A stretch of 17,827 bases of DNA from a virus (Duplodnaviria > Heunggongvirae > Uroviricota > Caudoviricetes), in IMG/VR virus record IMGVR_UViG_2778261533_000006, positions 1 to 17,827 of that record; one strand, given 5' to 3'. The number at the start of each line of letters is the position of its first letter. Position 1 is the stretch's first letter. The position numbers are program-made. Shown piece by piece: positions 1 to 6,000 of this stretch.

Positions 1-3000
1 TCAGTCAATTGTTTTGTTTATTCCATCTGTGACGCCGATTATTTTCTCAAAATAATGAGATGGCGTGACACCATAATAATCTTTAAATGCACATATGAAA
101 TATGAAGTACTGTTATAGCCACATTTCTGGGCTACGACATTGATAGAATAAGAGTTTGAAGTTATGAGTTTTTTTGCATACCTCATCCTAGTATCTCTCA
201 ATATTTCAGTAAATGACGTTCCTTCATCCCTTAATCTTTTTTTTATTAAACTTTCACTCGTATAAATCAATTCCGCAATATCTTTTAAATGCCATTGCCG
301 CTCAATATTAAAACTGATTATTCCAGTAATTTTACAGGTAAATGTATTTATATTTGTTAGTATAAAAGAATTTACACTTTCGCGTTTTTTGAACATGGCA
401 AGTAAGGATATACATAGTCTTTCTTTTAACCAAAGGGAGTGTGAGTCTGCTATTTTAATCCCTTCAAACAGAGAAAAAACAAGCGATAATGGAGGTTCCT
501 CTTCAGCAATATAGCCATTCTTATCAAGAGTAAATTTGCCAGGCAGCTCATTATTCACGTCGATAAAAAAGGATAAACAAGTTTTCTTATCTATATCAAC
601 AATTCTTAGTTTAGAGGGGCATACTGGTAACTCCCTTCTAATTTTGTCGCTTACAATAAACAATGAATTTTTTTTGAACGAGATAACTCTCCTGTTTATA
701 ATTAAATCAAATGATTGACAGATGAAAACTACGGAGCAAACATAATCCATCTTGCACCTATCATAAAATTAAAACAAGTTGATAGCAGTCAAATAACAAC
801 CAATTAAATACACAATCATAATCAGGATGATGTGCATTTATATTTTTATACACAAAATTATAGTTTGCAAATTTTAATAAATTTCATTTAAGATTAAATT
901 ATTATATGTATATTGTTTTTTATTCTAACGTATTTCAAAGTTACATTTTTCAACGCTTACTATACTTTTTATTAACATAAACTCACTACAACGCACCTGA
1001 AACCTCTTGCTATATATATGTCAACCGTTTGAATTTAAAATAAAAAGAGTATCATTTTTACTTGCATTTCTTATCAAGTCACATTCAACAACAGTAAAAA
1101 AACATTATTAGAACCATTCAATTAACAAAAAAACCAACATCCAGCTTGCTTAATTTTTCTTTATTAAACGATATTGAAAATCAATTGATAAAATACATCT
1201 AAACAACCTTTTGGGGCGCAAAAGCATAACATCAAACAAATAACACACCGAAAAAACTCACAATTAATAACCTATGATATACATACTGTTTATTATGGTT
1301 GAATAAGCCACTCGATATCTGGTGCTACGGAAGTGTCCACACGGTTTAGCAGCACCCGATACTTTTTTCAGGCTTCCAGCAACGATCTTTCTTCCTCCGT
1401 TGCGATTTCCAGATCTACAGCATCCTGCAGTGGCGCAATATACTCACTGAATTCCTGGATGTAGAACTGTGTGGTGACGGTCTTCCAGCTATTCGGCTCC
1501 TGCTGTATTGAAGCATACCAGGCTATTTCAATATCGCTATGCTGCGGCAGCATTTAACCCCTTGTAATTCATTGCCATAATTGATTTAATTCACAAATAA
1601 AACTATAACATGGTGAAATTAATGAAAAAAAACACAGATGATGGGGCTAAAATTTACACACCACTTACCCTAAAGCTTTATGACTGGTGGGTTTTGGGAG
1701 TATCAAATCGGCTTGCATGGGGATGTCCTACAAAGGAACACCTTCTTCCACACTTTCTGGAACATTTAGGTAACAACCATCTGGATATTGGTGTTGGAAC
1801 TGGGTTTTACCTTACTCACGTACCTGAGAGTAGTCTGATATCTTTAATGGATTTGAACGAAGCTAGCCTGAACGCGGCATCTACAAGGGCTGGGGAATCA
1901 AAAATTAAACATAAAATTAACCATGATGTTTTTGAACCTTATCCCGCGGCGTTACATGGTCAATTTGATTCCATTTCCATGTTTTACCTTCTTCACTGCC
2001 TGCCTGGAAATATATCTACAAAAAGCTGTGTAATACGCAATGCGGCGCAGGCCTTAACTGACGATGGAACTCTATACGGAGCCACAATTCTTGGCGATGG
2101 AGTTGTGCACAATAGCTTCGGTCAAAAACTGATGCGCATTTACAATCAGAAAGGCATCTTTTCAAACACAAAAGATTCCGAAGAAGGCTTAACACATATA
2201 CTCTCAGAGCATTTCGAGAATGTTAAAACCAAGGTTCAAGGTACTGTAGTAATGTTTTCCGCTTCAGGGAAAAAATAGCATCCAACCGCAGCACGTTCTT
2301 GCATAAGGCGTGTCTGCGGTTTTTCAACTATTCAGATACATCACTCCCATCACATTCATTCCTCCGCATCATAGGCATATAGGCTATATCACCTTGATAT
2401 TTTTCTTCTTCAGATAAAAACTGTTATCTATGTATACTTTTAAACCCAATCCGTGTAGAGTCTCTGCATAAGATAGTTTGCAGTTGCCACTTCAGCTTGC
2501 GCCATAAACCGCCTGATTTTTGCTGCCACCTGTTAGCATTCCTGTATACCTGAAACGACAATGTTTATCTACGAACTTTAAGAACCCCCAGGATAAAAAT
2601 TGTCAACTATATCATATATAACACATTACTAATTCGAGGCTATATGAACAGCATACTGATAATCACTTCGCTCCTTATCATATTCAGCATTTTTAGTCAT
2701 GCGCTAATAAAATTAGGGATTGGCATATCCAATAACCCAGACAAAACCGATGTATAAGTCAACATATCCTGAATCAGACATACAATATCGCAATGAAAAT
2801 CAATAATATTTTAAGGAATATCTTCATGAAATCAAAAGACACCCTAAAGTGGTTCCCTGCGCAGCTTCCTGAAGTAAGAATTATCCTAGGGGATGCTGTA
2901 GTGGAAGTAGCAAAACAGGGAAGACCTATCAATACCAGAACATTGCTTGATTACATTGAAGGAAACATAAAGAAAAAATCATGGCTGGATAACAAAGAAT

Positions 3001-6000
3001 TATTACAAACAGCGATATCAGTTCTTAAAGACAACCAAAATTTAAATGGTAAAATGTAATATAATAAACTTACTTTTTTATCATTTTTCCACTTTAACAA
3101 CATTTTGCTCCACTTTTCCACGACCAAACAACTTGAAATCTGGTTAAAATAACACGCAACACTATTCTTCTTCCTTGAGTCCGCCCGGAACTCGAAAAAC
3201 AAACCGAGTTAAAGCCATTTTTCACAAAATCGATTTTGGGTCTCACCAAAATTACGGGGTTGCATACGCATTCGTTTATTTTCGAACGTGTACATACAAA
3301 TATGCACAAAAATAATCATAATTATTTTCTGAGATGCATTATGATATGAACACCAATTTCGTATAGAGTCTCACTATGTCTCAAATTTTTGCTTACTGTC
3401 GGATATCAACGCTGGATCAGACCACCGAAAATCAACGCCGGGAAATCGAAAGTGCAGGTTTTAAAATCAAACCTCAGCAAATAATCGAAGAACACATTAG
3501 CGGCTCAGCAGCAACCAGTGAGCGTCCTGGTTTTAACCGGTTGCTTGCTCGCCTGAAATGTGGTGATCAATTGATTGTGACAAAACTGGATCGCCTTGGT
3601 TGTAATGCAATGGATATCAGGAAAACAGTGGAACAACTGACCGAAACAGGTATCAGAGTGCATTGCTTAGCATTGGGGGGCATTGACCTGACCAGTCCAA
3701 CAGGAAAAATGATGATGCAAGTAATTTCAGCAGTCGCTGAATTTGAACGAGACCTTTTACTTGAACGCACTCATTCCGGGATAGTAAGAGCCCGCGGCGC
3801 AGGGAAACGTTTTGGTCGACCACCTGTGTTAAATGAAGAACAGAAACAGGCGGTATTCGAACGAATTAAGTCAGGTGTAAGTATAAGTGCCATTGCCCGG
3901 GAATTCAAAACCTCGCGGCAAACCATTTTAAGAGCCAAAGCAAAACTTCAGACACCTGACATATAAAAAATAATCTCGGTGTGAGATGCTTTACGTCTTC
4001 CAAGCCCCCTTCCTTGCCGTAAATGGAAAGATACATCTAATTATAGAATTTATATGTTTTACCCTACGGCAGTGCTGGCCATTCAATATCCTGTGCAGTT
4101 GACGTATCAACACGGTTCAGCAATACCCGATACTTTTTCCATGCTTCCAGCAACGAGATTTCTTCCTCCGTTGCAATTTCCAGATCTGCAGCATCCTGAA
4201 GCGGCGCAATATGCTCACTGGCTACCTGCATCAGGTTGTTTTTTGTTTCTTCCGCCTCCCGGATCCGGAACAGTTTTTCTGCTTCCGTATCCTTCACCCA
4301 GGCTGTGCCGTTCCACTTCTGAAACTCCCCTTCCGGCGATAACCAGGTAACATTTTTCGGTAACGGACCGAGTTCAGAAATAAATAACGCGTCGCCGGAA
4401 GCCACGTCATAAACCGTTTTACCCCGATGATCTTCAACGAGATGCCACGATGCCTCATCACTGTTGAAAACAGCCACAAAGCCAGCAGGAATATCTGGTG
4501 GTGCAATATCGGTACTGTTTGCTGGCAGACCTGTATGAGGCGGAATATATGCGTCACCTTCACCAATAAATTCATTAGTTCCGGCCAGCAGATTATAAAT
4601 TTTTATGGTCCGTGGTTGTTCACTCATTCTGAATGCCATTATGCAAGCCTCACAATATAGTTAAATGCGATGTTTTTGACGGTGTTTTCCGCGTTACCAG
4701 CAGCGTTAACGGTGATGGTGTGTCCATGTGAACCAATCGCAACGGAGTGCGTATGAGCACCAATACCGACAGTATGCGCGTGTGCACCTGCAGATGCTGC
4801 TGTGCCGGACAGTGAATGGCTATGATTACCATCTGTACTGGTATTCGCTAACCACCCCGTAGACATACCTACTGAGCCTTGTACACCCGTTGTTAACTTA
4901 TCCATGGATTTCATAACCCCACCTCGCAGACAAAGCGGGTGTAAATTGAGGGAATACAACGTATCGCAAAAAAGCAGAAACGTAACAGACTCGGAGTCAG
5001 TGAATAACTCAGGTATTGGGTTATCAGCTAATATCGAGACTCAAAAAATGGAAAAACCCGCTCGACGGCGGGTTTAAGCTGTGTGACGAAGTAACCACTC
5101 TTAACAGCATAACCAATTTTTTACGTACGTAAACCACAAAATGATATTTGCGAGAATGCTACCGAGTATTGAAAACACCACTACAAATACATAAGCAAAT
5201 CTCAACAAATAACCAACAAATAATTTCCAGTGTTATTTTTAGCCGATTTAAATTGAACCTTCAAATTACAGAGCACTTATAAATAACAGCCGTTAATATA
5301 AATTGGCTAATAGATTTATTTTTATTCAGCCAAGATCCATGAATAGGATTCGATAGAAAAAAGTTCAGATAAAAATAGAGATCTACTTCACAAATCAAAC
5401 GAGAAACCAAAACTTACATCTTGAAATAATCACATTGATTAGATGAATATTTATCGCGCAGTGACATCATTTTTTAATAATAGTTCAAAAAAAAGGGCTC
5501 ACGATGAAAAAATTAACAGTGGCAATTTCTGCTGTAGCTGCATCAGTACTGATGGCGATGTCTGCTCAGGCAGCTGAAATTTATAATAAAGACAGTAACA
5601 AGCTGGATCTATATGGGAAAGTTAATGCCAAGCACTACTTCTCCTCTAATGATGCAGATGATGGTGATACTACTTATGCCCGTCTTGGCTTCAAAGGTGA
5701 AACCCAAATCAACGATCAACTGACTGGTTTCGGTCAGTGGGAATATGAATTCAAAGGCAACCGCGCTGAATCTCAAGGCTCCTCCAAAGACAAAACCCGT
5801 CTTGCATTTGCAGGCCTGAAATTCGGGGACTACGGCTCAATCGATTACGGCCGTAACTACGGTGTAGCATATGACATCGGTGCGTGGACTGACGTTCTGC
5901 CAGAATTCGGTGGCGATACCTGGACCCAAACAGATGTGTTCATGACTGGTCGCACCACTGGTGTTGCAACTTATCGTAACAACGACTTCTTTGGTCTGGT

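Follow-up and report, generated by a model that had tools for sequence, protein, structure and literature searches.

The viral record IMGVR_UViG_2778261533_000006, analysed here over positions 1 to 17,827 (this whole stretch of 17,827 nucleotides is referred to as the window), carries a small serine recombinase gene of the PinQ/PinR type next to a tail-fibre assembly gene and the tip of a tail-fibre gene. An earlier note, made from the sequence alone, took this gene for an orphaned DNA invertase with neither intact crossover sites nor a tail-fibre shaft left beside it, and the locus raises the question of what this recombinase is, how it came to stand alone and whether it can still act. We found that the window holds an ordinary copy of the known ynaM-ydfK-pin-tfa-stf right-end module of Rac-like lambdoid phages, situated in a decaying prophage. 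The account that we consider probable is that the recombinase is derived from a resolvase and has lost both its own site and a catalytic arginine, that it was an orphan from its ancestry onwards, and that the loss of the tail-fibre shaft was an independent event. The anatomy and evolutionary history of the module, as read here, are held with high confidence, and the activity state of the recombinase, which is read from its sequence, with moderate to low confidence.

Affiliation of the recombinase and its ancestral recombination site

The window recombinase is 100% identical to PinQ and 99% identical to PinR, whereas its identity to PinE, Gin and Cin is 36-38%, and in the same alignment these three proteins are visibly much closer to each other than to the window recombinase. 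Against proteins of solved structure it scores 106 bits with Gin and 84 bits with gamma-delta resolvase (solved resolvases give about 83-84 bits), which places it at a roughly equal distance from both. It contains the Resolvase domain (PF00239, 2.5e-36) followed by a C-terminal HTH_7 domain (PF02796, 2e-11), and the nucleophile Ser11 is present; NCBIfam holds no specific model for it, all matches there being far under the cut-off. Homologues are encoded in 1,868 plasmid records, mostly at 60-90% identity, amongst them Escherichia coli IncI-gamma/K1 plasmids, Klebsiella IncR plasmids and pEA29 of Erwinia amylovora, in which the PinQ-family gene adjoins parA/parG. A protein search returned thousands of relatives, many of them called 'resolvase' or plasmid-borne, and isolated phages including mEp460, Tritos, Kati and others carry the recombinase at 98-100% identity. 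The window recombinase is a lambdoid offshoot of a large plasmid-borne, resolvase-like family. Its assignment to the Pin/Gin/Hin/Cin invertases in the earlier note is not upheld, given the low identity to those proteins and a cognate site that is of the resolvase type.

This site emerged when the upstream DNA of approximately 70 diverse loci, with 56-85% identity to the recombinase, was lined up at the start codon. Almost all of these loci have one three-part layout, extending from about -115 to -13 relative to the start codon. Site I is an inverted pair, TGTCCGAAA-N8-TTTCGGACA, at about -115; site II is a pair TGTCCGAAA-N15-TTTCGGACA with approximately 15 bp between its arms, lying over a TTGAC-like -35 element with TATAAT next to it; and site III is a third repeat pair located directly ahead of the start codon. 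The layout is that of a resolvase res placed over the recombinase promoter, and the half-site TGTCCGAAA resembles the half-sites of gamma-delta. With up to four mismatches allowed, site I was found between -125 and -108 in 53 of the 62 non-lambdoid loci, 49 of these having it at -112 to -119. The literature that we searched held nothing relevant on the res or half-site sequence of this family.

A MAFFT alignment reveals that window positions 3252-3375 are collinear with the family res, and relics of all three sites can be placed within 3263-3365 (Table 1). The site I relic scores -2.2 bits, compared with 22-43 bits (median 35.6) for the 53 family sites, and among the half-sites, those of the relics reach 1.8-4.7 bits where the family median is 14.9. 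Decay that is still in progress would account for the slightly better site I relic of phage 2H10 (5.0 bits). Nothing resembling site I was detected by the site I matrix anywhere in the window, in Rac, Qin and 2H10, or in S10 (the complete lambdoid prophage that strain S10 has at the same attachment site as the window). Judged by these scores, site I of the window res has been destroyed and sites II and III are degraded.

Because the cognate site of the family is a resolvase-type res, a search for gix-like cores was the wrong test, and its negative outcome for the AAACC-NN-GGTTT core was confirmed when the pattern search was run. Our invertase-site matrix was built from the half-sites of cix, gix and pix from P1, Mu and e14, together with two hix half-sites; pix was identified from the inverted repeat found on either side of the P segment in e14, and gix and cix were taken from the annotated Mu and P1 genomes. 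The six real sites (cix, gix and pix) score 26-30 bits on this matrix, whereas the best window position reaches 6.5 bits, which is below the mean maximum of 9.7 bits for shuffled windows. The exact core occurs nowhere in the window, a pattern search with AAACCNNGGTTT allowing up to two mismatches gave 6 window matches where 10.4 are expected by chance, and the matrix found no gix-class site at the S10, Rac, Qin and 2H10 loci. As to the Fis-dependent recombinational enhancer that DNA invertases carry in the 5' part of the gene, the annotated enhancer of cin shares no alignable DNA homology with the recombinase gene, and Fis sites are too degenerate to call.

Several candidate sites were considered and rejected. 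The best core match, AAACCAAGGTTC at 2226-2237 with one mismatch, lies within the methyltransferase gene and has unfit flanks, its full-site score of 4.0 bits being at chance level. The inverted repeat at 3192-3213, named in the earlier note as the closest, half-site-like match to a crossover core, is present in the sequence but is outside the top positions of both the invertase-site matrix and the res site I matrix, and the relic res lies downstream of it; a stretch related to this repeat is found upstream of res in an E. coli plasmid relative (locus L029). The only inverted-repeat pair that brackets pin-tfa-stf' within window positions 1-6000, 3133-3166/5219-5252 (34 nt, 74% complementary, AT-rich), fits neither site model and is taken as chance; its right arm lies in the nmpC-essD spacer and became a neighbour of the pin module only through the 25-kb deletion described below. 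The likeness between family and pix half-sites (TGTCCGAAACC versus TCTCCCAAACC) is suggestive by eye, but pix scores 3.4 bits and gix 7.3 bits against the family median of 14.9, and we did not use it to argue for action in trans.

Ancestral orphan state and deletion history of the prophage

An arrangement in which a single stf-tfa pair is followed by convergent pin and then ydfK is common to S10, Rac, Qin and the viable phage 2H10, and no alternative tail-fibre cassette was found in any of the four. All full-length tfa matches among 28 pin-tfa loci are convergent with pin and directly downstream of it, with no orientation variants. Kirigo et al. (NAR 2025, PMC12529663) likewise reported, from BLAST analysis with Rac and Qin, inversions only in e14. 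The lack of sites had been tied in the earlier note to the missing shaft, a connection that S10 and viable 2H10 contradict, as both share the layout with its single stf-tfa pair and no sites. Since the orphan state occurs in viable phages, it is not the result of tail-fibre truncation; it is ancestral.

In a collection of complete E. coli genomes, window positions 2400-5400 are 100% identical over their full length of 3001 bases to the chromosome of a single strain, PSS-07. No other record among the 25 best listed spans all 3001 bases, including the deletion junction, in one piece; in most of the other best records listed the match ends at window 4888 and a full-length tail-fibre gene follows. 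The PSS-07 annotation places the window between appY and intD/tRNA-Arg, which is the DLP12 attachment locus (argU), and the DLP12 backbone proposed previously is thereby borne out.

Read in the orientation of the window, S10 contains appY, a tfa remnant, a methyltransferase gene, ynaM, ydfK, pin, tfa, the gene for the 1133-residue StfR, lom and J, and past J the tail and head genes, terminase, nohD, iss, rzpD, rrrD, essD, a porin gene, quuD and further genes up to intD. Window positions 1-4888 are 100% identical to S10 up to its position 149296, and from 4883 onward the window matches S10 from 174294, in essD. Homology to StfR, taken over its full 1133 residues, stops at window 4888, in agreement with the earlier observation that the tail-fibre shaft is missing. 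Relative to S10 (blastn), the window lacks 24,998 bp with lysis, head and tail genes, and the junction joins codons 1-11 of the EssD holin in frame to the last 80 Stf codons, giving a minus-strand open reading frame (ORF) between 4914 and 4639. The shaft was lost in a separate 25-kb illegitimate deletion that is strain-specific.

K-12 DLP12 matches the window (blastn) at 1-2319 and 4077-4493, and the sequence between these segments is absent in K-12. It keeps the lysis genes and nohD, its tfa fragment is joined directly to the methyltransferase gene ybcY, and it is a different deletion derivative, without the 2320-4076 cassette. The earlier proposal that the module had replaced the lysis/nohD region by recombination is the wrong description, because the window and K-12 DLP12 are different deletion derivatives, the window being the product of the 24,998-bp deletion in an S10-like prophage. 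The K-12 homology stops at 2319, at the foot of the stem of a hairpin at 2286-2324, and the homology of Rac, Qin and 2H10 to the window starts at 2282, 2270 and 2284, respectively, 2-16 bases upstream of this hairpin. Further breaks in collinearity with S10 are located at about 7902-7905, 14486-14497 and 15384-15527, where about 0.4, 2.2 and 1.8 kb are missing; affected are the repressor region and, in part, the regions of ybcN-ybcO and bet-exo. Decay of the prophage has come about through several independent events.

Residue changes in the lambdoid clade and the activity of the recombinase

Among 185 distinct relatives that have Arg at the position of the catalytic arginine (Arg-type relatives), 103 columns are conserved at 90% or more, and the lambdoid clade departs from them in only four: R35Q, E61K, R76C and T113M. 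Position 3 is also changed, to Gln (Q3), in PinQ and in the window protein. In the alignment with gamma-delta resolvase, Q3 corresponds to R2, R35Q to R32, E61K to E56, R76C to R71 and S11 to S10. Codon 76 is TGT (3601-3603) and encodes Cys where relatives have the catalytic Arg (R71 in Tn3 resolvase). Cys76 is present in 29/29 lambdoid-clade sequences and Arg in 188/188 others, and the Cys76 clade is exactly the set with tfa/ydfK neighbours and a ruined res. The remainder of the Tn3 catalytic set (Y6, R8, S10, D36, R68 and R71) is present in the window protein as Y7, R9, S11, E39 and R73, and the equivalent of R71 is C76. The R (2-3') interface set R2, R32, K54 and E56 reads Q3, Q35, R59 and K61 in the window protein, while R3, R35 and E61 are conserved in at least 90-99% of the Arg-type relatives. 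Tn3 resolvase loses recombination when any of six residues, R71 among them, is mutated, and cleavage falls about 1000-fold (PMC2794168); its R interface, which keeps the res synaptosome together, is made up of R2, R32, K54 and E56 (PMC9943657).

These data are consistent with a scheme in which the lambdoid lineage would have taken up a plasmid-type resolvase-like gene. In this lineage crossover site I has been destroyed and sites II and III degraded, and in step with the decay of the site the catalytic Arg (Tn3 R71) has become Cys and the R-interface residues have been replaced. With res lost and these residues changed, the recombinase probably cannot recombine its own locus; since its helix-turn-helix domain is conserved, DNA binding is probably retained, and either this or autoregulation may be the function that persists. 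The recombinase would be at best weak and deregulated, with any recombination taking place only at foreign sites in trans. In PSS-07, icd directly abuts iraM, which means that e14 is not at its normal site, and no pinE-like gene was detectable in the PSS-07 chromosome by sensitive blastn (a query of the junction, pinE and pixR gave 4 places, the same as the junction alone). As the e14 P segment, the only published target, is missing from icd, the gene is probably idle or purely regulatory in this genome.

A number of observations weigh against a loss of conventional activity. Overproduction of PinQ raises inversion of the e14 P segment from about 30% to about 88%, and deletion of pinQ lowers inversion (PMC12529663), which at face value means that PinQ is catalytically active on pix despite C76. 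More than 1,600 E. coli genomes, and viable phages as well, carry an intact ORF, 99 of the 103 family-conserved positions are kept in the lambdoid clade, and the ratio of nonsynonymous to synonymous substitution rates (dN/dS) against relatives is 0.15-0.36, all of which argues for retained function. The effect ascribed to the Arg to Cys change is an extrapolation from Tn3 resolvase. Moreover, the activated 'NM' form of that enzyme carries six substitutions, R2A and E56K among them, and as E61K is the equivalent of E56K, the clade could be deregulated rather than dead.

In an alternative reading, PinQ would be an active switch in trans, kept by host or prophage to invert the e14 P segment as an anti-phage defence, and the window copy would do likewise. 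Kirigo et al. (PMC12529663) reported that PinQ inverts this segment in trans and thereby blocks adsorption of T2; such a role is favoured by the rise of inversion with PinQ overproduction, by the dependence of T2 resistance on stfP/stfE and e14 in that study, by the intact and widely conserved ORF, and by the E56K-like change, which could free the enzyme from accessory sites. However, a pinE deletion mutant was locked in one orientation although pinQ and pinR were present (PMC12529663), and neither the main text nor Table S4 of that paper contains a test of PinQ in a pinE-deleted background. C76 at the position of the catalytic Arg speaks against an active switch, as do PSS-07, which is without e14 at icd and without a detectable pinE-like gene, and classical work in which the gin-complementing activity of K-12 was assigned to e14 itself. 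We regard this alternative as unlikely. C76 and the poor pix scores on the family matrix argue for caution regarding catalysis by PinQ, whilst the E56K-like change leaves room for weak, deregulated activity. The idea of an orphan that acts only in trans accordingly survives in part: there is no usable site in cis, and action in trans is claimed in print for an identical protein, but the protein is not of the Pin/Gin family to which the idea had assigned it.

A slightly less likely alternative still is that the gene is an inert, hitch-hiking relic, conserved only because the module spread recently. The decayed res and the lost catalytic Arg agree with this, and the differences within the clade (0-4 substitutions) are too few to detect selection; for the same reason within-clade dN/dS values, which range from 0.3 to above 1, were discarded as a selection signal. 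Inertness is at odds with the 99 of 103 intact positions, with an ORF that is uninterrupted in nearly all copies, including variants at 85% identity against which dN/dS is 0.36, and with the published phenotypes of pinQ deletion (PMC12529663). That the gene encodes a genuine Pin/Gin-family invertase, which lost its invertible segment and sites by deletion and now flips gix-like sites elsewhere, is suggested by its position beside tfa/stf, as for gin, cin and pinE, and by its match to PHROG 125 'DNA invertase', but is highly improbable and already contradicted, both on family membership (36-38% identity to PinE, Gin and Cin, a family site of the resolvase res type, a median of 14.9 bits for the family half-sites but 3.4 bits for those of pix) and on how the gene came to be orphaned (no gix-class site in S10, 2H10, Rac or Qin, a single stf-tfa pair everywhere, and a deletion that ends in essD, unrelated to recombination sites).

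Extending the reading of a resolvase-derived orphan from the window to the whole PinQ/PinR clade, we tentatively propose that the clade is an ex-resolvase captured from a plasmid, which would now be without its res crossover site, its catalytic Arg and its regulatory interface and would not be a conventional recombinase. The published effect on e14 might then be indirect, for example via PinE, or reflect low, deregulated activity on non-cognate sites, and the res of the plasmid relatives might be a previously undescribed multimer-resolution site; this wider proposal, taken as a whole, is somewhat more doubtful than not. The label 'PinQ' or 'PinR' should not be assumed to denote a Gin-type invertase. 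Relatives of PinQ/PinR resemble resolvases that resolve plasmid multimers, and their res can be recognised, which is useful for annotation, and the Cys at the catalytic Arg position of the lambdoid clade bears on the reading of the 2025 PinQ defence paper.

The module in comparison with known systems

The module itself has been known since the K-12 genome was sequenced, and the window adds one more copy, in a prophage short of 25 kb. The PinQ (Qin) and PinR (Rac) modules of K-12 have the same order and orientation, ynfT/ynaM-ydfK/ynaE-pin-tfa-stf, and are 99.2-99.4% identical in DNA sequence over window 2270/2282-4200, as anticipated when the window was first likened to them; they also have the ruined res and Cys76 in common with it. 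The window differs from Rac and Qin in its location at the argU (DLP12) site, beside the ybcY-homologue methyltransferase gene and appY, and in its stf, which is cut to 80 codons and fused to essD. The plasmid resolvase-like relatives (pEA29, IncI-gamma/K1 and IncR) share the same Pfam pair, 99 of the 103 positions and a collinear upstream region, but they have an intact three-part res, the Arg and R3/R35/E61, and are without tfa/ydfK neighbours, whereas the window has lost the res, the Arg and the R-interface residues. Tn3/gamma-delta resolvase follows a similar logic, with three binding sites of different spacing over the promoter, and Arg-type relatives keep its R-interface and catalytic residues. 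The match is nevertheless distant: site I measures 26 bp in the window's family as against 28 bp, no transposase accompanies the recombinase, and the window protein is without R71 and without three of the four R-interface residues. Gin (Mu), Cin (P1), PinE (e14) and Hin are, like the window protein, small serine recombinases encoded beside tail-fibre genes, and P1 cin is also convergent; in contrast to these systems, the window has no 26-bp AAACC-NN-GGTTT (12-2-12) sites, no alternative stf/tfa cassette and no orientation variants.

ORF analysis, annotation and Pfam matches all agree with the set of genes listed in the earlier note (ynaM, ydfK, the recombinase, tfa and the stf tip), and the features of the module are collected in Table 1. 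The stf tip additionally has PHROG tail-fibre C-terminal matches.

Table 1. Features of the pin module and its surroundings in the window
Feature	Position	Strand	Basis
Hairpin ccgcagcacg...cgtgtctgcgg, followed by T5	2286-2324	+	Read from sequence
ynaM-ydfK-pin cassette, 1.76 kb	2320-4076		Present in window and S10, absent from K-12 DLP12 (blastn)
ynaM/ynfT small ORF, 37 amino acids	2644-2757	+	Pfam YnaM 6.5e-28; NCBIfam YnaM_YnfT; RefSeq
ydfK/ynaE, 77 amino acids, annotated cold-shock protein	2826-3059	+	RefSeq; 100% identical to Qin YdfK (tblastn)
Short AACTCG...CGAGTT inverted repeat, 'half-site' of the earlier note	3192-3213	+	Crossover site under neither site model
Relic res site I (crossover site), CATACGCATTCGTTTATTTTCGAACG versus consensus TGTCCGAAACCGACCGGTTTCGGACA	3263-3288	+	MAFFT, collinear; site I matrix
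Relic res site II, TGCACAAAA...TTTCTGAGA	3303-3334	+	Alignment to family consensus; half-site 2.1 bits versus median 14.9
Probable -10 hexamer TATGAT (family TATAAT)	3340-3345	+	MAFFT
Relic res site III, TGAACACCAATTTCGTATA versus TTCGTACATCCATTTCGTAC	3347-3365	+	MAFFT
Small serine recombinase, PinQ/PinR type, 196 amino acids	3376-3966	+	Pfam Resolvase and HTH_7
tfa tail-fibre assembly gene, 191 amino acids, convergent with pin	4064-4639	-	Pfam Caudo_TAP 6.8e-43; 98-99% identical to TfaR/TfaQ
essD-stf tip fusion ORF, EssD codons 1-11 and last 80 Stf codons	4639-4914	-	Translation versus S10 EssD/StfR; Pfam Phage_fiber repeat
Deletion junction, 6-bp microhomology ACACCC	4883-4888		blastn of window versus S10

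The essD-stf fusion ORF lies just downstream of a late-operon terminator-like hairpin at 5054-5075 on the minus strand and is followed by an intact tfa, a position that may now give the tip and its chaperone QuuD-dependent late transcription. Within tfa, a full-length Rfam match to IS009 (RF02111) was found at 4098-4296 on the minus strand, with 220.9 bits compared with a gathering score of 117; this was the sole match in the Rfam scan. A remnant of the 3' end of tfa at 1304-1460, adjoining appY, is a direct repeat, at 82% identity, of the intact tfa 3' end at 4077-4231, and the pair flanks the methyltransferase-ynaM-ydfK-pin block. The prophage remnant also contains ybcK, a second and unrelated serine recombinase gene, which encodes a large recombinase of 508 residues (10245-11771, minus strand).

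The window methyltransferase gene, a ybcY homologue at 1610-2278 on the plus strand, encodes a SAM-dependent enzyme that is 53% identical to that encoded next to the pEA29 resolvase (L031, 4915-5574). In pEA29 the methyltransferase gene is directly downstream of the PinQ-family resolvase gene, and the shared pair may be what is left of two genes captured together from a plasmid. Linkage between methyltransferase and pin was rejected as a feature of the family, having been seen only on pEA29 and in prophages at the DLP12 site.

Variants on three metagenome contigs (L040-L042) encode a Pin that is 85% identical to PinQ, with the same ruined upstream region, ydfK/tfa neighbours and Cys76, and they point to lambdoid-type and plasmid-type alleles having exchanged segments of the gene in mosaic fashion. 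The module was also found at 97-100% identity on contigs filed as Draconibacterium, Caldithrix, Alistipes metagenome-assembled genomes and Nocardioides (L010, L011, L013 and L028), organism labels that are most likely artefacts of binning or contamination.

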